The position numbers and the translations under genes were made by a program. This document shows positions 3,023-31,189 of a stretch of 64,000 bases of DNA, one piece after another (positions within the stretch are counted from its first letter, which is position 1; every line of letters begins with the position of its first letter). The stretch lies in IMG/VR virus record IMGVR_UViG_3300012971_000021. One strand, 5' to 3'. Below the pieces are notes generated by a model. It was not told the origin of the DNA. It saw nothing but the letters and a program-made list of their open reading frames with translations, and made no database searches. The DNA is from a virus.

Positions 3023-6000
3023 TCATGGTTTGAGTACCCAGATGTCGTTCACGTAGATTTCCCGCGCAGCACGCCATCCGGGCTTGACGCCCCGGACGAG
3101 CAGAACGTCCTCATGGAGCTTGATCTTCCAGAGTATGTTCTTGAACCGGGGGTACTTCCAACGAGTGATCCGGATGCTGAGCAGGTCGGTTCCGTCGTAA
3201 CCCGCTATCAACATCCACTCGTTGAGTTCGGGATGCTTTACCGTCGCCGGGTCTAGCTCCTCGCCCGTCCGGGCGCGGTTGACCTCAAAGATGTCTCGGA
3301 GGTTCCGGTGAACGGGGATGCCGATCCAGATGACCTCTTGATCCTCTCCCCGCTCGTACGGAACGTCGATGGCTTTGAAGGTCGGCTTTGGTAGCCGATT
3401 CCCCAGGCTGTCGTACATCCCGGACTTCAGGCTCCGCACGCAAGACTCGATCATCCTGTCCATCGTCTTGACGCCGAACGGATCCTCGGCGGTCGCGTGA
3501 GCCACAAGCTTGTCGATGGTCTTCGGCCCGATCCCCTTGACTTCGATCAGGTTGGGCCACCTAACGGTTCGGTCTCCGACGCTATCGCGCCACGTGATAA
3601 TCTTCTCGGCCATCGATGGGCCGACACCGTCGATCTGATCGAAGCCCGGACGCAGCGCGCGGTCTCCGTCGCGCTTCCACGTCATGTCGGACTTGCGCAG
3701 ATCGTACGGGAGGATCTTGAACCCGTGAGCGATAGCGTCCCGCAGCATGATGGTGTGCGGGTCGATCTGCGCCTTGGAGATCGCGCTGGCCTTGGCGTTC
3801 GCTCCGCTTCCGCCGCTGCGCCCGTCGGCGCGGTCGAGCATCGCTGCGTAGAAGATCCCAGGGTGATGCTTCTTCCACCACATCGTCCACCAGGCGATGT
3901 AGCCGTACGAGACCGAGTGCGCCGCGTTGAAGGCGTACGAGCCGCTGGTCGTCAGGTCGCCCCAGATCGAGCGCGCCAGTTCCTTCTCGATCTTGGGGTA
4001 GCTCGTCCGCTCGTGAATCGTCCGCGCGCCCTCCCAGAACCGCTCCCACTGCCGGTTGAACTCCGCGTCGCCGAGCTTCCGTGAGATGATCTTACGGATG
4101 TAGGCTGCGTGCGTCCAGTCGAAGTTGCCGATCTCGCGAACAATCTGGAGGATCTGCTCCTGGTAGACGATCTGGTACTGCGTGAACGCGGTTATGCTCT
4201 CCAGCGCAGGGTGACGCAGATGAGGCTGTTTCTCTCCTCGCTTGATGTCAACGTAATCGGCAACTGCTCCATTATGTAGCGGGCCAGGTCGGGCGAGAGC
4301 GGTAACGTGGCAGACCTCGTTGAAATCGTCTGGCTTGACGGATCCGTTGACCATACGACAAGCTCGGCCTTCAAATTGGAATATTCCGACGACATCGTTC
4401 TCCTTGAATCCCTCGACTGTCCTATCGTCCTCAATCGGGATCTCGTAGAGGAACGACGCTGGCTTGCCTAGCATCTGGCACATACGGATGAGCGCGTCGA
4501 GCGCGGATAGCCCGAGCAGGTCGATCTTGAGGACGCCGAGGTACTCAGCGTCGTACTTGTCAATGGCGACGACCTGGATCAGACGTTTGTTGACCTCTCG
4601 CTCCAGGATCGCGGTTACGTCGGTGATCGGCTCGTTGGAGATCGCTACGCCCGCGGCGTGCGTCCCGAAGCCTTTGACGTTTCCCTCTAGCTCAGTCGCG
4701 TCGAGTAGCTTAGGGTGACGCTGGATGACTTCGGCCGCTTGCTCGAACTGCTCGATGGTATCGAGGATCGTCGCACTGGCGCGCAGGTCGCCGGACGACC
4801 GCTCCAAGAGCACGTCCTTGATCAGATTGACTTCGTACTGCGGGATGCGGTGGACGCGCGCTACGTCGTCGAGCGCGAGCTTCGACTTGAACGTCTGAAA
4901 CGTCCCAATCTGGTTGACACACTCTCGTCCGTAGCGCGACACCAGGTAATCAACGATCTCTCCCCGACGGGTGGATTCAAAGTCAAGATCAATGTCCGGG
5001 AGATCCATCCTGGTAATGTCGATGAATCGCTCGAAAACCAGATGGGGGAACTGCATCGGATTGACTTCTGTGATACGCAAAAGCCAACAGACAAGGCTAG
5101 CCGCAGCCGACCCGCGTGCAGGCCCAACTCCAATTCCTGCCTGCTTCGCGAACTGTACAGCGTCAGCGACAATGAGGAAGTAGTCAATGAAGTCTTTCTC
5201 CTCGATGATCGACATTTCGTACCTGAGTCTCTCGGTGTACTGTCGCCGCTCCGCGTAGGAGAGACGGTCACATCCTCGGAACTCCCATCCCTGGCGGAGC
5301 CACTCCCGCCAGATCTCGTGGCTTCTACCTCCCGGATACCGAACCATTGGCAACCGTGGCAGTTCGACAGTACAATCCTGCGCGAGAGCTTCGGTCATGA
5401 GGATCGCGTCGATGGCCTCCTGTCTCGTTAGCCCGGTCGCGACCAACCGCGAGAGAATCGAGCGGTCGCTTGCCGGCGGACAAAGCTCTGCAGTGTAGCC
5501 CCACGTCTTCGCGAGATCCTCCGGGGTAGACTTCCCGCCGTTGCGAAGTGAGTGGATGACTTGCTGCAGTTCGTTCTCCGTCGGCAAGGTGTAATGGCAA
5601 TCTAGGGTCGCGACAAGTGGCACACCCACTTCCCGAGCAATCCGAGCGAGGAGAGGGTTGGCCCTGCGGGTAGTCTCAAGTTCAGGGAACGCCTGGACTT
5701 CGACAAAGTAGCGATCTCCAAATGTCCGACGGAAGCGTTGAGCGACGGCCAGTGCTCGGCCATAGCTAGCATCCTCAGGCGCGATCCCTTTACCTCCAAC
5801 AAGCGAGCAGAACAGTAGTGATCCCTGACATCCAGATAGTACCACGACCCCTTCTTGGTGGTCGCGAAGCATTCCTCCCGATACGGTTGGCTCATAGTAG
5901 AAGCCCTCCATGTACGAGCGGGAGACGAGTTGGAGAAGGTTCCGGTACCCGGTCTCGTCCCGCGCGATGAGAGTGAGGTGGTTCTTGAGCTGCGTCCGGC

Positions 6001-6421
6001 GATCCGGGTCGATCTCGCCCGTGTACAACTCGATGCCGAAGATCGGCTTGACTCCGATCTCGCGAGCCGCTTGCTCGAACTTCACGTGGCTCATTACGTT
6101 CCCGTGTTCCGTGAGCGCCAGCGCTGTACCATTGAGTTCAGAGATCCGTCGAACGTGAGCTTGGGGGAGTTGGAGGCCGTCGAGGAACGAATACGTGCTA
6201 TGGTGATGAAGCGAGACGAACCGCATCGGTCTGGTGAGGCGGGGATTACGATGACTACGCTTGTCCCTCCGAACCAGCGCAGGAGTATCCTCATGGTCGC
6301 AAATCCTTCCGTGTACGTCGAGCTTCGCCTTGCCCGGCGATTCGCCGCGCTGGATCTTGTTCCCGAACGCCGAGAGCTTGGCGTGATCGGGCGACTCGCC
6401 CCTCTGAATCTCGTCAGACAT
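3023..6421 (-). CDS. dnaE: DNA polymerase III alpha subunit (PHP + Pol IIIa core)
   Basis: LHHHSTYSFLDG, ALTEHG, GPARGSAAASLV, RMDLPDIDLDF, HAAGV, LKIDLLGL, YQEQ, YAFNAAHS. Confidence 0.97.
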   Translation of the reverse strand: MSDEIQRGESPDHAKLSAFGNKIQRGESPGKAKLDVHGRICDHEDTPALVRRDKRSHRNPRLTRPMRFVSLHHHSTYSFLDGLQLPQAHVRRISELNGTALALTEHGNVMSHVKFEQAAREIGVKPIFGIELYTGEIDPDRRTQLKNHLTLIARDETGYRNLLQLVSRSYMEGFYYEPTVSGGMLRDHQEGVVVLSGCQGSLLFCSLVGGKGIAPEDASYGRALAVAQRFRRTFGDRYFVEVQAFPELETTRRANPLLARIAREVGVPLVATLDCHYTLPTENELQQVIHSLRNGGKSTPEDLAKTWGYTAELCPPASDRSILSRLVATGLTRQEAIDAILMTEALAQDCTVELPRLPMVRYPGGRSHEIWREWLRQGWEFRGCDRLSYAERRQYTERLRYEMSIIEEKDFIDYFLIVADAVQFAKQAGIGVGPARGSAAASLVCWLLRITEVNPMQFPHLVFERFIDITRMDLPDIDLDFESTRRGEIVDYLVSRYGRECVNQIGTFQTFKSKLALDDVARVHRIPQYEVNLIKDVLLERSSGDLRASATILDTIEQFEQAAEVIQRHPKLLDATELEGNVKGFGTHAAGVAISNEPITDVTAILEREVNKRLIQVVAIDKYDAEYLGVLKIDLLGLSALDALIRMCQMLGKPASFLYEIPIEDDRTVEGFKENDVVGIFQFEGRACRMVNGSVKPDDFNEVCHVTALARPGPLHNGAVADYVDIKRGEKQPHLRHPALESITAFTQYQIVYQEQILQIVREIGNFDWTHAAYIRKIISRKLGDAEFNRQWERFWEGARTIHERTSYPKIEKELARSIWGDLTTSGSYAFNAAHSVSYGYIAWWTMWWKKHHPGIFYAAMLDRADGRSGGSGANAKASAISKAQIDPHTIMLRDAIAHGFKILPYDLRKSDMTWKRDGDRALRPGFDQIDGVGPSMAEKIITWRDSVGDRTVRWPNLIEVKGIGPKTIDKLVAHATAEDPFGVKTMDRMIESCVRSLKSGMYDSLGNRLPKPTFKAIDVPYERGEDQEVIWIGIPVHRNLRDIFEVNRARTGEELDPATVKHPELNEWMLIAGYDGTDLLSIRITRWKYPRFKNILWKIKLHEDVLLVRGVKPGWRAAREIYVNDIWVLKP

Positions 6422-6956
6422 CGCGCCTCCACGGGGTCTCCCAGATTGCCCCTTCGATCCTCTTGACTAGCTGAAGTTGAACGCAGAGGTTCGCCCACTT
6501 GACGCCGACGACCTTCATCCAAGTGATGTCGAACTTCCACTCGTGCCCGTAGCTGCTGTCATAGCCCTGCGAGTAGAACATGTCCTGCCAGCCCTCCTCC
6601 GTCCAGTAGCTCCGATGGTCGGGAGCCTGGTACGCGAGCGGGGCCATCGCGTGCGGGACGGTGATGTAGGCGCAGCCCTCCTCCATCAGCACGCGCTCGA
6701 CTTCGATCAGTTGGAGGCGCACCGCGTCTACGTCCAGGTGCTCAAGGAAGTGGTGCATGTGGACGGCTGCTACCGATCCGTCCGGGTACCGTAGCTCTGG
6801 CGCTCTCCATTCCGGCCGGTCGAGGTTGATCGCGCCGTCGATGGGTGCGAACCCGGAGCCGAGATTGAGTGTCTTCCCCCGAGGCTGCCGCATGAGGGTG
6901 CCTGGGTTCCGCTTGACGCCGAGATAGAAGAAGATTTCCTCATCCACTTTGACCAC
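6414..6956 (-). CDS. SAM-dependent methyltransferase (Methyltransf_11-like)
   Basis: LNLGSG, HHFLEHL, ERVL..EG, ITVP, DHRSYW; start moved to GTG 6956. Confidence 0.8.
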   Translation of the reverse strand: MVKVDEEIFFYLGVKRNPGTLMRQPRGKTLNLGSGFAPIDGAINLDRPEWRAPELRYPDGSVAAVHMHHFLEHLDVDAVRLQLIEVERVLMEEGCAYITVPHAMAPLAYQAPDHRSYWTEEGWQDMFYSQGYDSSYGHEWKFDITWMKVVGVKWANLCVQLQLVKRIEGAIWETPWRRDV

Positions 6957-7215
6957 GCTCGATCTGCTTGACGAGGAACGCCGCGAAGTTGATGACGTCG
7001 AGCGCATCCTCGACCACTGCGTCGTACTCGCCGCGAGAGTATGCGTACTCGATCCGGCGCATACGCTCGTTCAGTTCCCGGATCTTGTCACTGGGCGGAA
7101 ACTCCATCCACAGTTGCCCGCGGATCTGGCTCTTGTCCCGGAACAGCTGCATTGCCCGCTCCAGAACGGCCGCGTGCTCCCCCTCATAATCAAGTGTCTG
7201 CACTACTTCCTTCAT
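6940..7215 (-). CDS. Small all-alpha MazG/DUF1599 (nucleotide-modification-associated)-like protein
   Basis: LFRDKSQIRG...VEDALDVINFAAFL; start at ATG 7215. Confidence 0.6.
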   Translation of the reverse strand: MKEVVQTLDYEGEHAAVLERAMQLFRDKSQIRGQLWMEFPPSDKIRELNERMRRIEYAYSRGEYDAVVEDALDVINFAAFLVKQIERGQSG

Positions 7216-7852
7216 GTTGCTCCCTCCACTTCTTGATGAGGCCGCCGATCCCGGCCGTGATGTCCCAGATGTTGTGGGTGCGCGGGATACTCGCGACGTT
7301 GTACGGATTCGCGATGAGAATGCCGACCGGACGCCCGACCGCGTAGTCAGCGTCGTCACACATCTCAGGCAGGTCGTCGATCACGACGACGATCCGATCC
7401 GGGTTCACGCGCGTGACTAGCTGCGCGTACTTGTCCTCATCGAACAGCATCCCGCCGTCGTACTCGATCTTGTGGCGTCGCAACCATTCGACGGTATCCG
7501 GAACGATGTTGTCGAGCGAGAGGTACGGCCGGGTGGTCGTGACCCATAGCTCGGCGTCGTGCGAGCGGATCTCCGAGACGAGTTCAATCGCCCCGTCGAT
7601 GATTGGCATACTGCGCTTCATCCCGCCTTGCCGGTAGGCGAGCTTGATGGCCCTGAACTCGGGAGGCTCGACTTGGTTGACCTCCCAGAACCATTCCTTG
7701 AACCCGGTCGAGCCGGTGTAGTCATCGCGCAGCCGTCGCCCGACGTACTGCTCCGCGAACCGGATGAAGTGACCGTGGTAGTCGCCTATCGTCCCGTCGA
7801 TGTCGAGCGCGACGACCGGCCGAATGATCTGGCTACAGTTTGAGCAGAGCAT
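7190..7852 (-). CDS. HAD-superfamily 5'(3')-deoxyribonucleotidase-like phosphatase
   Basis: ALDIDGT motif I, VTTR motif II, K, VVIDDLP motif IV. Confidence 0.8.
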   Translation of the reverse strand: MLCSNCSQIIRPVVALDIDGTIGDYHGHFIRFAEQYVGRRLRDDYTGSTGFKEWFWEVNQVEPPEFRAIKLAYRQGGMKRSMPIIDGAIELVSEIRSHDAELWVTTTRPYLSLDNIVPDTVEWLRRHKIEYDGGMLFDEDKYAQLVTRVNPDRIVVVIDDLPEMCDDADYAVGRPVGILIANPYNVASIPRTHNIWDITAGIGGLIKKWREQHEGSSADT

Positions 7853-8642
7853 TCCTCACCGCCTCGTAGGAGTGATGGACAAACGTGTTCTTGTCCCATT
7901 GCCCGAACCGACCGAGCCGGATGATCTCCGGGTTGCAGTCGCAAGTCGTCCAGATCGGCTTCTCGCCGTAGCTGACGGTGTGATGCGGCGGTACCGCTTC
8001 CTTCTCGACGTGGAATGGCACTTGGCCGTCGCGGTACTCCCATGACTCGTAGCGGTTGATGAGCGAGTAGCGGTACCAGTCGAAGCCGATGTAGTCCATC
8101 AAGCCGTCCGGCGTCCACCCGTTGTAGTACATCATGTTGCGCTGCTCTCGGCCGTCCGTCTTCGGCCCATGAACGATGCAGACTCGCTGCGACTTGAACT
8201 CGTGCCGAGAATCGCGGCAGAGCGTCCTGGCGTAGATCGTCGTGAAGGTGACGTCGCTCATCGCGACTAACCCGCGAGCGGACATGGCGCTGACTTCGCA
8301 GGGCACGATCAGATCCTCGTACATCTTCCATAGCTGACGGTACGCCTCGGGCAGACTCCAAGCGAGGATGACGCCCTCCTCAAAGCGATCCCAGCTGACC
8401 GGTGCCTCGGGGTCGCCGTAGACGTTCATGGCGTAGCCCTCGCGCTCGCCGGACTTGATGACGTCGATCTCTAGCTCGTGCTGCTCGGGGCTGACGCCGG
8501 GTACGGGCGCGTGTAGGAACATCGCGCCGTACATCTGACTCGGTACCTTGCGCGAGTAGACCTTGACCTCATGGCCTAGCTCGACCGCGGCGTGCGCCGC
8601 GATCAGACCGGCCGGGCCTGCTCCGAGAATGGCGATCCTCAC
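7833..8642 (-). CDS. FAD-dependent oxidoreductase (compact, UDP-galactopyranose-mutase/PPO-like ends)
   Basis: MRIAILGAGPAGLIAA Rossmann motif; C-terminal RLGRFGQW. Confidence 0.75.
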   Translation of the reverse strand: MRIAILGAGPAGLIAAHAAVELGHEVKVYSRKVPSQMYGAMFLHAPVPGVSPEQHELEIDVIKSGEREGYAMNVYGDPEAPVSWDRFEEGVILAWSLPEAYRQLWKMYEDLIVPCEVSAMSARGLVAMSDVTFTTIYARTLCRDSRHEFKSQRVCIVHGPKTDGREQRNMMYYNGWTPDGLMDYIGFDWYRYSLINRYESWEYRDGQVPFHVEKEAVPPHHTVSYGEKPIWTTCDCNPEIIRLGRFGQWDKNTFVHHSYEAVRNALLKL

Positions 8643-8953
8643 GAGATCACAACCTCCAGCCCGATACCGTTGATCGTGAGGTCTCTCCGCTCGCCGTTCC
8701 GCTCTAGCTGGAACGTGATCGACTGCAACGTTCCAGCGCCGACTTCACCCACAGTGTCCGATACACCCAGGATGTTCCATCCGATGATCTGGACGTTGCG
8801 GGTCGTCGAACGCATGATGGACGCTTCGATGTCTTCCGCGCCGCCGCCAAACAACGAATGCTCATATGCTCCCTCCCGCTCGAAACGGACACGGTCGCCG
8901 CCGGGTGCGTTGGGTGGCCGTACTGCCGGGGTGTAGTCTTCGTCGTCTACCAT
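8639..8953 (-). CDS. Hypothetical protein
   Basis: ORF coupled to neighbours by overlapping start/stop. Confidence 0.65.
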   Translation of the reverse strand: MVDDEDYTPAVRPPNAPGGDRVRFEREGAYEHSLFGGGAEDIEASIMRSTTRNVQIIGWNILGVSDTVGEVGAGTLQSITFQLERNGERRDLTINGIGLEVVIS

Positions 8954-11706
8954 CTGACCTCCCTCAATAGCTCGTGAAGCGTCGGCTCCACGATGTTGTC
9001 CCCACCACCCGTATCCTTCCGGATCATTCTCGCCCGGTAGAGACGGTTGATGATCGCGTTCGCTTGCTCGCGAGAGACGTTCAGAACCTCCTCTAGATCC
9101 TGTCGCCGGAACTTGCTCGCGCTGCGGAGAAGCTTGGCAAGCCCCCGCTGCTCTAGAAGGTATGTCCGGATCTCGTCTCTATGCTCGCGAGCCTCCTGCA
9201 CGTCCATGATCCGTTCTCTCGACCGCTCCGCGTATCCGAGTGTTGGCATATCGTAGACGTGGTCGATGAACGCTACGGCGTCTTGGACGTGCTCCTTGTT
9301 GACGATGATTCGCTCACCTTTCTCATCGCTGCTGAACGTTCTAGCCGCGAGAGAGACGGCAACGCGAGCGATCTTGATGCGGGCATTGGCCGCTTGGATG
9401 AGAGGAGGATCCTCGACGTATCGGTCTCCCATGGCGTTTGCTTGTCGGTAGACTTCATCCTCCGCTCCTCCCGCCCAACCGATCTGGTCGGGCTGCCTCG
9501 TCCAGACCCACATCAGCAGCGTGTGGCAGGCTTCGCTCGTGTACTTGAGTTCGCCAGGCTCGATCCGCTTATTGTACTCGTTCGGGTTGACGTCGTACTT
9601 GGAGAGTGCCATCGCGAGATCGAAGCGTGCGATGTCTTCCGGGTTCCCGATGAGCGGACGGATCGCGTCTACTCCGTATGTGAACTGATCCATTCCTCCG
9701 TGTCGAGGATTTCCGAGCCAGAGGAGACGTGTACGTGCGAATGTGACCTCCTGCTGAATCTTAGTGAGGCGAGCCATCCCCGACGCCCGCACGTCGGACA
9801 TCTTGGCGATCTCCTCCGGGTGGAGACCTGATAGTTCATCGATGACAACCAGTCGTCGGTCGTTGAGAGGAATGACTCCCCAAGTAACGGCCCAATCGCG
9901 TCCAGAAATCTGCTGGACTCCTCCAACCAGGCCAGCAATAGTAGCTGCCTCGCCTCCGACCATTTCTCCTGCGCCGTAATGTCGAACGAGTCGTTCAGCA
10001 GCTTCCGATTTCCCCGTGCGAGTATCTCCAACGATGAGAGATTCGAGCCAACCCCTGTGGACAAGCTGACCTCCGAACTTGAAGGAGAGAGGCGAGTGGA
10101 ACGTTAGATCCATGACCGCGTGCATCTCAGGACGGCCGATGATCTTTGTGACGTGGCTCGCTAGTTCGCGCTCGATCTCTCCGAGCTTCTTGAGTGGACG
10201 TTGCCTTCCCCGCGGTCGGAATCGCATCATCATCTTGACCGCTTCGCCCGTCAAGTCAAACCAGTCTACGCTCGTTTGTTGTTGTTGGACTTCCCAGGCG
10301 AGAAACTCGTTGCTTGCGTCCCTTGGGGAAGGGTAGAGCGCGCCGGTGACGACGACAGTGGTGTTTGCCATTGTGTCGTGTCTTCCCACCGACGTGATCT
10401 TGATGTTCTTGTAGTCGCGTGCTTGTGTCCCGTCCGCATGGTCTATGGACGGTCGAGCGAACAGTTGTTCGACGGCTTGGTGATCGGATACCTCGATGTT
10501 GAGTTTGGTACACTTCTGCGCTCCGTACTCCTGGCGCAGCATTTCCCGTCTAGTTATCTCCGGAGCGTCGATCATTCCGAGGATCATGGGGCTGGTCGGA
10601 AGTATCTCTAGCTCGGCGTTGCCTCCCGCTCCGTTGAGAGGACAGACCGCGCATTTCGGCCCCGCGTCCTGCGTACAAGCGAGGTTCGCGAGTCGAGGGA
10701 CGGAGTAGCCCGGTTCCTTCTTGCCCTTGATCGTTACTTGGAGCCTGACCGGATCTCCGACTCGATGCGAGTCGAACGAGTCGAGTACCGTAATGACCTC
10801 TGCTTCCCCGGCTGGCTTCTTCTTGGGTGAGTGTGCCTCGGTCAGCAACCGCTCGAAGTCGATAGCGTCGTGCTCTGCCCAAAAGTCGGTCAGATCCTTT
10901 CCGTGCTTGTCTACGATCTCGTACGGGAGTTGAACGATTCGTACGTCCGCGATCCTGGCGAGCGAGCGGGCGATCTTGCCCGCGCCGCTCTGCCCGTCCG
11001 CATCGCAGTCCTGCGCGATGAAGACGAGCTTGCCCTTGAAGAGAGGATTCCACCGGGGGTTCCAGGTCTTGGCCCCGGACGTTCGGGTGATCGCGGGGTA
11101 GCCGTTCTGGATAGTGACAAGAGCGTCCCACTCTCCCTCGCAGATGATGATTCGATCCGCGCTGATTTGGTTGAGCGGGTATAGCTCGGTCGGCCTCATG
11201 CCGGTGACGTTCCAGATCTTGGTCTTACCCTCGCGAGTCGTGTAGCGACGTACGTTGAAAATCTCTCCCATCGGGCCGCGGATCGGGATGGTGTAGACTT
11301 CCCGGTCGCGATCCCAACCGATCTCGAAGTCGATGATGGTCTTGGTATGGATACCACGGCTAACGAGATAGTCGGCCACTGTCTCATCATCGAGGAGAGC
11401 CGCATGCCACCCTTTGATCTTGCCTTCGGTGATGATCTCCTGCGCGCTGGCCCCGCCCCGCCGAGGAGAGCCATTCATTGCGGCCCTCCCCGGCGGAACC
11501 CAGCGCGACTGGTGCATGATGAGGTCTGCGACCCGACCGCCGCCGCATCCAGCGTGACAGAACCACTCGCCGGTCAGCGTGTTGAGCGACGCCGACCGAT
11601 TCGTGTCGTCGTGGAGCGGGCACAGCATGTCCCACTCGCCGTTCTTCTTGGGCCGACCGATGAGGTACGGCCGTAGAAGACGCAGATGTCTCGCGGATAC
11701 CGGCAC
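8947..11706 (-). CDS. Primase-helicase fusion: Zn-finger + TOPRIM primase + MCM-like AAA+ helicase
   Basis: CPLHDD...FCHAGC; ICEGEWDAL and QDCDADG (TOPRIM); CTQ..KCAVC; GDTRTGKS, VVIDE, WLGNP, ARFDL. Confidence 0.88.
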   Translation of the reverse strand: MPVSARHLRLLRPYLIGRPKKNGEWDMLCPLHDDTNRSASLNTLTGEWFCHAGCGGGRVADLIMHQSRWVPPGRAAMNGSPRRGGASAQEIITEGKIKGWHAALLDDETVADYLVSRGIHTKTIIDFEIGWDRDREVYTIPIRGPMGEIFNVRRYTTREGKTKIWNVTGMRPTELYPLNQISADRIIICEGEWDALVTIQNGYPAITRTSGAKTWNPRWNPLFKGKLVFIAQDCDADGQSGAGKIARSLARIADVRIVQLPYEIVDKHGKDLTDFWAEHDAIDFERLLTEAHSPKKKPAGEAEVITVLDSFDSHRVGDPVRLQVTIKGKKEPGYSVPRLANLACTQDAGPKCAVCPLNGAGGNAELEILPTSPMILGMIDAPEITRREMLRQEYGAQKCTKLNIEVSDHQAVEQLFARPSIDHADGTQARDYKNIKITSVGRHDTMANTTVVVTGALYPSPRDASNEFLAWEVQQQQTSVDWFDLTGEAVKMMMRFRPRGRQRPLKKLGEIERELASHVTKIIGRPEMHAVMDLTFHSPLSFKFGGQLVHRGWLESLIVGDTRTGKSEAAERLVRHYGAGEMVGGEAATIAGLVGGVQQISGRDWAVTWGVIPLNDRRLVVIDELSGLHPEEIAKMSDVRASGMARLTKIQQEVTFARTRLLWLGNPRHGGMDQFTYGVDAIRPLIGNPEDIARFDLAMALSKYDVNPNEYNKRIEPGELKYTSEACHTLLMWVWTRQPDQIGWAGGAEDEVYRQANAMGDRYVEDPPLIQAANARIKIARVAVSLAARTFSSDEKGERIIVNKEHVQDAVAFIDHVYDMPTLGYAERSRERIMDVQEAREHRDEIRTYLLEQRGLAKLLRSASKFRRQDLEEVLNVSREQANAIINRLYRARMIRKDTGGGDNIVEPTLHELLREVRW

Positions 11707-30320: not shown

Positions 30321-30455
30321 CCCCAAATGGGTGAGTAGAAAACCCCCCGAACGGGGGAGGCGACTCGCCGCGGCGAGGAGTACGCTACGGACGTAGCGCC
30401 GAACGGATCGGCGCTCGGAACCCCGGCGAGACCCGCCGGAGAAAGTAGGTAACCC

Positions 30456-30950
30456 ATGGCTCGGAATACTCCCCTCCCCGCGACGATCCGCGCGGCGGCG
30501 CTCGCCGCCTACGTCGTCGCCTACGACGCGGACGCCGCCGCGGACGCCCCGAAGGGGTACGTCGTCGCGGGCGACGTCGCCGCCGCGGTCGCGAAGCGGT
30601 ACGGTCTCTCCCGCGACTACGTCCGCGGTCTCTCGGACGCCGTCGTCTACCGCGAGAACGGGACGCGGAACCCGCTCGCGGACGTCGCGCCCGACGCCCC
30701 GCGGAGCGTCGTCGCGAAGTCGCTCGGCGCTCGCCGCCGCGCGGGAGGGACGCTCGCGCGTCTCGATACGCTCCGCGCGACGCTCGCCGCGACGCTCGGA
30801 GTCCCGGTCTCGAAAGCCGAGACGGAGGGCTATCTCCGCTCGGCGCGGATCGTCCGCGAGCGGGACTACTCCGGTCGCGGGACGCGCGCCCGCGCGACGA
30901 AGACGCGCGACGACGCGGCGAGCGCCGCGGAGTCGCGCCGCGGGAAGTAG
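30456..30950 (+). CDS. 164-aa Ala/Arg-rich orphan protein in a CA/TG-free tract
   Basis: Clean ORF followed by a strong hairpin; lacks C, F, H, Q, W and internal M. Confidence 0.75.
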   Translation: MARNTPLPATIRAAALAAYVVAYDADAAADAPKGYVVAGDVAAAVAKRYGLSRDYVRGLSDAVVYRENGTRNPLADVAPDAPRSVVAKSLGARRRAGGTLARLDTLRATLAATLGVPVSKAETEGYLRSARIVRERDYSGRGTRARATKTRDDAASAAESRRGK

Positions 30951-30957
30951 CTCGCGC

Positions 30958-30987
30958 GAGTCCCGGAGGGTTTACCCTCCGGGACTC
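30958..30987 (+). terminator. 13-bp perfect hairpin (terminator-like, no U tract)
   Basis: GAGTCCCGGAGGG-TTTA-CCCTCCGGGACTC. Confidence 0.6.
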
Positions 30988-31189
30988 CCCGCTCGCGGGG
31001 GCAGGCGTCATCACGCAAAATAGAAACACCCTATACGACCAATCCCCCGCCACCTCCCCCGCCACCACGGCTGCGCCCTCCTCACCAATCCCCTCCTCAC
31101 CAATCACACCCCCTCGCGTACGCGCACGTGCATATCGCGCGATTATCCCGTCCCGCCCGGGAGCCAAACCTCTCTACGACTTTCATGCT

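Follow-up and report, generated by a model that had tools for sequence, protein, structure and literature searches.

A DnaE-linked gene module in an uncultured actinophage as a candidate pathway for thymidine hypermodification at TG sites

Why would a phage keep a flavoprotein, a phosphatase, a small helical protein and a methyltransferase between its primase and its replicative DNA polymerase? The question is raised by a stretch of viral DNA of 64,000 nucleotides (IMG/VR virus record IMGVR_UViG_3300012971_000021; hereafter the window), which represents most of the genome of one uncultured soil phage of the actinophage type with a GC content of ~61%. In the left arm of the window, where transcription runs leftward, the minus strand is covered from position 11706 down to 3023 by overlapping genes throughout, without a break. 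An earlier note on this DNA had placed four genes at 6414-8642 between a primase-helicase and dnaE, with ThyX nearby, and had proposed them as a translationally coupled cassette for base or nucleotide modification. All of these open reading frames (ORFs) and their flanks were confirmed, each on the minus strand: a flavoprotein of 269 aa (7833-8642), an NT5C-type HAD phosphatase of 220 aa (7190-7852), a 91-aa all-alpha helical protein with a predicted MazG fold (6940-7215), a predicted class I S-adenosylmethionine (SAM)-dependent methyltransferase of 177 aa (6414-6947), a DnaE-type DNA polymerase III alpha (3023-6421; Pfam DNA_pol3_alpha, 8e-69, plus PHP and finger domains) and an atypical ThyX-family protein of 317 aa (1079-2032). 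The frames overlap at each junction (flavoprotein/HAD by 20 nt, HAD/91-aa protein by 26 nt, 91-aa protein/methyltransferase by 8 nt and methyltransferase/DnaE by 8 nt), and this overlap is the sole form of coupling seen.

Our best single reading of the module is that of a pathway for thymidine hypermodification in a TG context; we hold it tentatively, as the leading candidate but with slightly more doubt than belief. The most likely product would be a thymidine analogue with a sugar-derived (polyol) side chain at C5, placed at TG sites and shielding TG restriction sites. The block itself is best read as the actinophage variant of an old module found in the company of DnaE, in which a short-chain dehydrogenase/reductase (SDR) and the SAM methyltransferase would be optional extras.

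A TG-specific thymidine of the sugar type was described in 2025 in therapy-relevant Pseudomonas phages. The DNA of two Pbunaviruses, F8 and 14-1, is resistant to enzymes whose sites contain TG; about 1/4 of T is replaced by a thymidine derivative located at TG, and the nucleosides, with nominal masses of 362 (F8) and 390 Da (14-1), were described as a sugar-alcohol derivative and a circularised aldopentose derivative (Yee, Lee, Weigele, Bondy-Denomy et al., 2025, preprint, PMC12191111). That study did not link the mark to particular genes. Our searches show that 14-1 shares with the window clear homologues of the variant ThyX-like protein (gp60, E 4e-19 against the window), of the methyltransferase (gp13, 34% identity, E 4e-28) and of DnaE (gp56, 30% identity over 949 aa, E 2e-97). 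Two further proteins match weakly, namely gp66, which resembles the flavoprotein (E ~1e-3) and has the motifs GAGxAGLIAAH and LGRFxxW in common with it, and gp58, which resembles the MazG-fold profile. 14-1 differs from the window phage in host and in virion type (a tail sheath is annotated).

The ThyX-like gene is present in F8, PB1 and 14-1 (E ~1e-15), whereas the methyltransferase has a homologue in 14-1 and none in F8 and PB1. The difference between the two nucleoside masses, 28 Da, equals two CH2 (two methyl groups) at nominal mass, and by our own arithmetic the F8 mass fits deoxyuridine with C5H11O4 as the chain, equivalent to a thymidine whose methyl group bears a four-carbon polyol. 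From these two phages we predict that the methyltransferase methylates the side chain, giving 390 Da in 14-1 as opposed to 362 Da in F8. Beside gp66, the 14-1 gene gp67 (L087:37390-38274) contains a 560-bp stretch free of AT/TA; it encodes a low-complexity protein rich in Lys, Glu and Ala with an acidic tail, and we dropped the stretch as a relevant signal because it is probably only a compositional effect of this low-complexity gene.

Avoidance of restriction sites was analyzed for 4-bp and 6-bp palindromes with at least four expected copies, a palindrome being counted as avoided at an observed/expected ratio of ≤0.25. Only 9/123 palindromes containing CA/TG were avoided in seven genomes that bear the module, 14-1 serving as the positive control, compared with 86/351 of the others (odds ratio 0.24, p 2e-5); the five close relatives of the window gave 8/90 and 77/261, respectively. 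Ten control mycobacteriophages, which carry neither the flavoprotein nor the ThyX variant, avoided 35/171 CA/TG-containing palindromes and 118/475 others (odds ratio 0.78, p 0.29). Palindromes without TG were avoided to the same extent, 25%, in the module-bearing and the control groups. The contrast was also significant per genome (Mann-Whitney p 0.0015) and held at thresholds of 0.1-0.5, and none of the other dinucleotide classes differed between the two groups in this test. 14-1 showed the same TG-selective signature as the module-bearing genomes (log odds ratio -1.17). Such a pattern is expected from protected TG-containing sites, and the genome statistics suggest that the window phage marks its TG sites. 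Among the controls (L141-L152), PG1, Wildcat and Barnyard had somewhat fewer avoided TG/CA palindromes, with log odds ratios of -1.13, -0.83 and -0.59, without carrying the flavoprotein.

Within the window, TTAA was not observed at all versus 44-88 expected copies, and GGGCCC, CGATCG, CTCGAG, GAGCTC, GTCGAC, CCTAGG and GAATTC are wholly absent. As many TG-less palindromes are completely avoided, the greater part of the DNA must be exposed to restriction, and a global base replacement is therefore unlikely. The DNA-modification reading of the earlier note finds indirect support in the 14-1 homologues, the palindrome signature and a conserved CA/TG-free gene (see below), but hardly as a genome-wide exchange of one base for another. 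The sites GATC, GTAC, GGTACC and TCGCGA are 1.2- to 5-fold over-represented in the window, depending on the background model.

The strong avoidance of most TG-less palindromes, which means that most of the DNA can be restricted, also fits the main rival explanation, ordinary nucleotide-pool housekeeping for the DnaE replicase with no new base in DNA. Here, the ThyX-like protein would make deoxythymidine monophosphate (dTMP), the MazG-fold and NT5C proteins would clear unwanted or non-canonical (deoxy)nucleoside triphosphates and deoxynucleoside monophosphates (dNMPs), and the flavoprotein would serve as a redox helper or in metabolite repair. We regard this as possible but rather unlikely; it accounts neither for the selective loosening of avoidance at TG-containing palindromes, as measured against the controls, nor for the CA/TG-free gene.

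This gene lies in a tract that the earlier note had reported and that proved to be real. Over the 670 bp of 30332-31002 there is one CA/TG, the CATG at the start codon of an ORF on the plus strand (30456-30950), and the longest gap between CA/TG dinucleotides is 545 bp versus an expected maximum of ~78 bp; no other dinucleotide class is comparably anomalous. The tract amounts to little more than this one gene and its flanks. The ORF, with a GC content of 76%, encodes an Ala/Arg-rich protein of 164 aa that matched no Pfam or PHROG family. Its homologues in five relatives, at 31-45% amino acid identity, are nearly free of CA/TG as well. Since the property has been kept across this degree of divergence, it is under selection, acting at the DNA level on both strands.

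The tract may be a region from which TG-directed modification is kept away. A connection between the gene block and the tract, as the earlier note had suggested, looks prescient in view of the homologues shared with the TG-marked 14-1, of the palindrome signature and of the conservation in the five relatives, although the link is still one that we infer. That the tract travels with the module was ruled out: it is missing from cultured distant relatives and from 14-1, and is specific to the clade of the window. When five cultured actinophages were searched with the tract protein, none showed a homologue.

The conservation of the module was assessed in 83 loci, all carrying the flavoprotein (80 IMG/VR loci and 3 cultured phages). 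The HAD gene was found next to or near the flavoprotein gene in 70 of them, DnaE lies downstream of the flavoprotein in 73, and a member of the blastp family of the helical protein occupies the slot after HAD in 56. The methyltransferase accompanies the flavoprotein in 8/83 loci only. The gene order is always primase, module, DnaE, at identities down to ~30%. The co-occurrence of the genes in relatives, a check named in the earlier note, was hence borne out for the flavoprotein, the HAD phosphatase and the helical protein. Its four-gene cassette, in contrast, was ruled out as a conserved unit: the methyltransferase is sporadic and in Pbunaviruses stands out of this context. The conserved core is formed around DnaE by the variant ThyX, the flavoprotein, HAD and the MazG-fold protein, with the methyltransferase as a sporadic accessory member.

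Vertical inheritance of the module as a core component of the replication operon would agree with a housekeeping role, as would the finding that the slot between primase and DnaE holds further genes in some relatives: ThyX genes fill it in a few loci, and five relatives carry a gene of the uracil-DNA glycosylase (UDG) superfamily there. The latter gene (PF03167, 5e-30; e.g., L047:11781-12422) lies between the flavoprotein/HAD pair and DnaE, and a glycosylase-fold enzyme could in principle act as a base-exchange or sequence-reading component.

Other neighbors point in another direction. A FabG-like SDR occurs in 21 of the relatives, the window being without it, and a glycosyltransferase lies near the module in some of them. 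Both would suit a small-molecule or sugar pathway apart from DNA, directed at a cofactor, a cell-wall precursor or a signalling nucleotide and possibly serving anti-defence, in which a UDP-galactopyranose mutase (UGM)-like flavoenzyme, the phosphatase, the SDR and the methyltransferase tailor a sugar or nucleotide-sugar. We consider such a pathway improbable. In every clade the module has a fixed place in the replication operon, beside DnaE and the ThyX-like gene, whereas anti-defence genes are usually variable rather than core, and the HAD is of the dNMP-phosphatase type.

The ThyX-family gene at 1079-2032 was indeed found where the earlier note had seen ThyX (Pfam Thy1, PF02511, 89 bits, 4e-25; phrog_35637, 2.6e-108), but it does not look like a normal ThyX. 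In the alignment to the solved ThyX 3ge9, the window sequence GGLQTALES...THQLVRTRKAAFHQQSMRA stands against the canonical vGHtalLEH...THELVRHRHFSFSQLSQRF, and R-T-R-K-A-A takes the place of R-H-R-H-F-S (signature RHRxxS). With RHRxxS and the upstream conserved histidines missing, the protein is predicted not to be a canonical ThyX. A ThyX-like gene is present in all 12 module-bearing genomes examined, and the same variant motif, THQ[LIM]VR[TSQ]R..A[AG][FY].Q[QE]S.R, was detected in 11 of them, including 14-1 (gp60). The exception is Sparcetus: the script found no motif there, although it has a ThyX-like gene with a match to the family profile at 4e-40. Against this profile of the variant family, the canonical ThyX of phage L5 gives hardly any match. 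The loss of residues conserved in 3ge9 speaks against the dTMP synthesis that housekeeping would assign to this protein. Instead of being an ordinary thymidylate synthase, it is a candidate for an enzyme that alkylates uracil at C5 and may be the one missing from the pathway.

The flavoprotein (7833-8642) belongs to phrog_8720 (3.8e-43), a family of no known function whose members are labelled 'oxidoreductase' in actinophages. It comprises ~1,200 clusters at 50% identity, with lengths of 243-295 aa and only two exceptions, of 220 and 343 aa, and is ~98% viral; no fused forms of at least 500 aa were found in the search, which is weak evidence. The protein of the window starts with a GAGPAGL Rossmann motif, and Pfam matched the Rossmann N-terminus alone. 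Likewise, the dinucleotide-binding motif was the sole part matched in PDB searches by sequence and by profile, the profile match covering residues 2-50. The AlphaFold2 model (predicted local distance difference test, pLDDT, 95.6) depicts a two-domain minimal flavoenzyme. Its best VIA match is UGM (4dsg, Z 15.7, root-mean-square deviation 3.7, 261 aa aligned), so that the structural comparison proposed in the earlier note did give an answer; further UGM entries (3hdq, Z 13.7; 4mo2, Z 13.2) follow, with protoporphyrinogen oxidase (13.5), amine oxidases and group A monooxygenases close behind at Z 12-13.5. The model thus points to a flavin adenine dinucleotide (FAD)/nicotinamide adenine dinucleotide (phosphate) [NAD(P)]-binding fold of the UGM/protoporphyrinogen-oxidase/amine-oxidase type.

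While the overall fold resembles that of UGM, the matched UGM chains have 363-473 aa and the phage protein, at 269 aa, is ~100 or more residues shorter, in line with the loss of a domain. The missing part is probably the UDP-binding helical domain of UGM, and no GLF domain was matched by Pfam in the flavoprotein at E values up to 0.1. A sugar pathway is therefore favored by the closest fold and disfavored by these two features of the same protein. The tight linkage of a UGM-fold flavoprotein to the module is, in turn, left unexplained by nucleotide-pool housekeeping.

Among 74 flavoprotein sequences, S35, H44, Y70, Y75, W95, Y101, R191, E202, K228, R245 and W249 are at least 99% conserved, and C142, H147, C234 and C236 ~93%. 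These residues would fit a phosphate-binding active site plus a zinc or redox/nucleophile site. The C-terminus carries a G-R-x-G/A-x-aromatic motif, which we take to be like the flavin-binding motif of the UGM group. At the end of the second Rossmann strand, a position that is acidic in most FAD enzymes, stands an invariant Ser (S30) with Arg/Lys after it. In view of this replacement, the bound dinucleotide may differ from standard FAD, and an NADP-type or adenylate-modified ligand is possible.

The HAD protein (7190-7852) matches NT5C (PF06941, 2.2e-10, 41.1 bits at a cut-off of 24.8, covering residues 11-186), with an intact motif I, DIDGT, at residues 17-21 and VIDD farther on in the translation. 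We assign it by sequence to the NT5C type, 5'(3')-deoxyribonucleotidase, for which dNMP activity is predicted at the level of the family. NT5C-family enzymes being dNMP phosphatases at that level, this assignment speaks for housekeeping. In cultured phages the HAD subfamily counts 83 records, all from host genera that also have the flavoprotein.

The best PHROG match of the same protein is phrog_415, 'polynucleotide kinase' (2.1e-14), and homologues bear this label in some records. Together with neighboring recombination and repair genes (a Cas4-like nuclease, AAA_24 and SNF2), the label would be compatible with processing or repair of DNA ends at the replisome, the HAD acting as a polynucleotide 3'-phosphatase and the other proteins as repair accessories. 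This explanation is very improbable: the protein has no kinase domain, Pfam puts it in NT5C and not with the PNKP phosphatases, and flavoproteins and ThyX-like enzymes have no known role in end repair.

The 91-aa protein (6940-7215) had no direct Pfam match. Its AlphaFold2 model (pLDDT 92.9) is closest to AF_0060 (2p06; Z 11.0, 84/88 residues, 2.7 above the runner-up), and in Foldseek AF_0060 is followed by MazG and HisE entries with template modelling (TM) scores of 0.5-0.7 and E values of only 0.05-3. According to the model, the protein would have the all-alpha fold of MazG-like nucleoside triphosphate pyrophosphatases, a fold typical of house-cleaning enzymes and in this respect favorable to housekeeping. 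When tested for the MazG pattern ExxE...ExxD, the window copy shows the acidic residues E47-x-x-E50 and E69-D70-x-x-D73. Across the family, however, D73 alone is invariant and the first acidic motif has changed to basic residues, and a family without the conserved acidic metal-binding motif sits less well with a pool-cleaning role. Three of 30 members of the blastp family match DUF1599/Nmad1 (PF07659; best 1.6e-6), the window copy not being among them, and hhalign of the window subgroup against the PF07659-matching subgroup gave a probability of 22% (E 9e-4). By this weak, transitive route the protein is possibly a distant relative of DUF1599/Nmad1. With the NT5C phosphatase, the MazG fold and the ThyX-like family, enzymes of the nucleotide type were found as the earlier note had described them.

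The 177-aa protein (6414-6947; phrog_6636, 9.5e-31) is predicted to be a small class I SAM-dependent methyltransferase: a motif I, LNLGSG, is visible, and Methyltransf_11 matches at E 0.008, under the cut-off. Neither a (D/N/S)PP(Y/F) nor a PC motif is present in its translation, and no DNA methylase family was listed for it by Pfam or NCBIfam. A weak, partial match to the sugar O-methyltransferase model MftM (E 0.0019) would suit the sugar pathway. Its best cultured homologues are those of the Pbunaviruses, where the gene is surrounded by early hypothetical genes and distant from those for replication. Searching the PDB by sequence and by profile was uninformative for HAD, the methyltransferase and the 91-aa protein.

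How could these proteins give rise to a thymidine with a polyol side chain? A flavin N5-iminium carrying carbon is common to the chemistry of ThyX and of UGM. The ThyX-like enzyme would first activate deoxyuridine monophosphate at C5. The UGM-fold flavoprotein would then supply and/or reduce a carbon electrophile derived from a sugar phosphate, using flavin N5-iminium chemistry. In a third step, the HAD protein would take the phosphate off the side chain, or off the competing canonical dNMP, and the MazG-fold protein would subsequently edit the triphosphate pool. Where present, the SDR and the methyltransferase would tailor the side chain, the methyltransferase acting on its hydroxyls.

Several points weigh against such a pathway. 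For this phage and the module-bearing actinophages, the case is built from gene content and its conservation, protein folds, homology to Pbunavirus genes and genome signatures. The TG specificity is left unexplained by nucleotide-pool enzymes and would need a step at the level of the polymerase or after replication. In agreement with the earlier note, which had recognised no 5-hydroxymethyluracil kinase or glycosyltransferase, the Pfam scans of the 29 ORFs of 676-31746 (the right arm lying outside the scans) revealed no 5-hydroxymethyldeoxyuridine (5-hmdU) DNA kinase, aGPT-Pplase, glycosyltransferase or sequence-specific transferase. Pool housekeeping would be an equally good role for a dNMP-type phosphatase. 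Taken by itself, the window avoids 2/18 CA/TG-containing palindromes versus 17/49 others (p 0.07), and the palindrome test as a whole draws on few genomes, on sites that are not mutually independent and on controls from one host genus. No CA/TG-free tract was found in Rooney, Sparcetus, MoiGyank, Nova, Onyinye or 14-1. In 14-1, moreover, no HAD homologue was matched, and the flavoprotein match is the weak one given above. Finally, we had hoped for an unrelated polymerase in 14-1 that would separate the module from the replicon, which gp56 as a DnaE-like protein ruled out. The module and the DnaE replication genes are thus co-inherited, in 14-1 as elsewhere, and the correlation with the TG mark is inseparable from the rest of the replicon.

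Thymidine hypermodification by the module can be compared with known phage pathways. A precedent is Bacillus phage SP-15, whose DNA contains 5-(4',5'-dihydroxypentyl)uracil, which was ribose-labelled (Kropinski et al., 2018, PMC5977210); according to the title of a study cited there, this base is synthesised at the level of the nucleoside triphosphate. The SP-15 genome encodes two proteins of the Thy1 family, and a FabG-like reductase gene adjoins one of the two (PMC5977210). Its base is a uracil with a pentose-derived C5 chain, like the proposed product. SP-15 differs from the window phage in being a 222-kb phage whose modification includes further sugar additions and for which no TG specificity is reported. 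In phiW-14, SP10, ViI and M6, 5-hmdU is reportedly incorporated and then processed by post-replicative kinase and transferase steps. These pathways are like our proposal in that a C5-substituted derivative partially replaces T and that the first enzyme is thymidylate-synthase-like, but they use ThyA-fold hydroxymethylases, a 5-hmdU DNA kinase and aGPT-Pplase transferases, none of them recognisable in the scanned ORFs of the window, and no UGM-fold flavoprotein.

The flavoprotein is found in 126 records of cultured phages of Gordonia, Microbacterium, Mycobacterium, Streptomyces, Arthrobacter and Nocardia. Cluster D mycobacteriophages (Nova gp61-68, PBI1, PLot) have the same gene families in the same order as the window. 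In Nova, the block consists of gp61 (oxidoreductase), gp62 (deoxyribonucleotidase), gp63 (methyltransferase), gp64, gp65 (FabG-like), gp66 (DnaE) and gp68 (ThyX-like). In comparison with Cluster D, the window is without the FabG-like SDR and has the 91-aa MazG-fold protein after HAD. Equivalents of the block are present in Gordonia DV, in Microbacterium Krampusvirus and in Streptomyces phages. Identities of these cultured actinophages to the window are 26-33% for the flavoprotein, 38-51% for HAD, 35% for the methyltransferase (Nova gp63) and ~42% for DnaE, and Cluster D and the other cultured actinophages share the same variant ThyX motif. The block is merely listed, without a function, in genome announcements (PMC10893344), and a literature search on the function of these genes in actinophages found no paper. 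The module had hence been annotated in cultured phages before. It is a real and widespread set of genes, of ancient origin and uncharacterised. New here are the TG-selective palindrome contrast, the CA/TG-free gene kept in five relatives and the presence of the methyltransferase in 14-1 and not in F8.

In its widest form, our proposal would be that the DnaE-linked module is the unassigned pathway for the sugar-alcohol thymidine at TG, widespread in soil actinophages including Cluster D, that its methyltransferase explains the 390 Da as opposed to 362 Da, and that the clade of the window keeps a 670-bp tract unmarked; as a whole, this version is doubtful. Hypermodification of phage DNA stops restriction enzymes and CRISPR, makes sequencing harder and is a source of new enzymes for DNA chemistry. 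If the proposal were true, the assignment of genes to the TG mark could be tested directly in easy systems and cheaply in cultured phages, and many actinophages in teaching collections and in therapy would carry an unnoticed mark. The enzymes of the routine SEA-PHAGES digests (BamHI, ClaI, EcoRI, HaeIII and HindIII) have no TG in their sites, and the mark would stay hidden from them. Metagenomes of short reads would likewise fail to reveal a modified base. The module would also offer a new flavin-dependent route to C-alkylated pyrimidines. Should the mark have another origin, the module would still be a conserved set of nucleotide-metabolism genes, as yet uncharacterised, on viral DnaE replicases.

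At the nucleotide level, megablast of 6000-9000 against 50,697 phage records gave no matches. Downstream of DnaE, an HU-like gene accompanies the ThyX-family gene. Between the primase and the flavoprotein, the gene list of the earlier note omits a 104-aa ORF on the minus strand (8639-8953), which overlaps the primase gene by 7 nt and the flavoprotein gene by 4 nt. It had no matches in PHROG and NCBIfam and none of meaning in Pfam, and within the 83 loci its homologues are confined to five close relatives. The upstream edge of the block is formed by the primase/MCM-type helicase fusion itself (8947-11706, minus strand; Pfam MCM, PF00493, 8.8e-7; Toprim_2, 4.9e-4), in which a CHC2 zinc finger is followed by a Toprim domain and then by the MCM P-loop domain, a domain order that agrees with a separate earlier note on this fusion.

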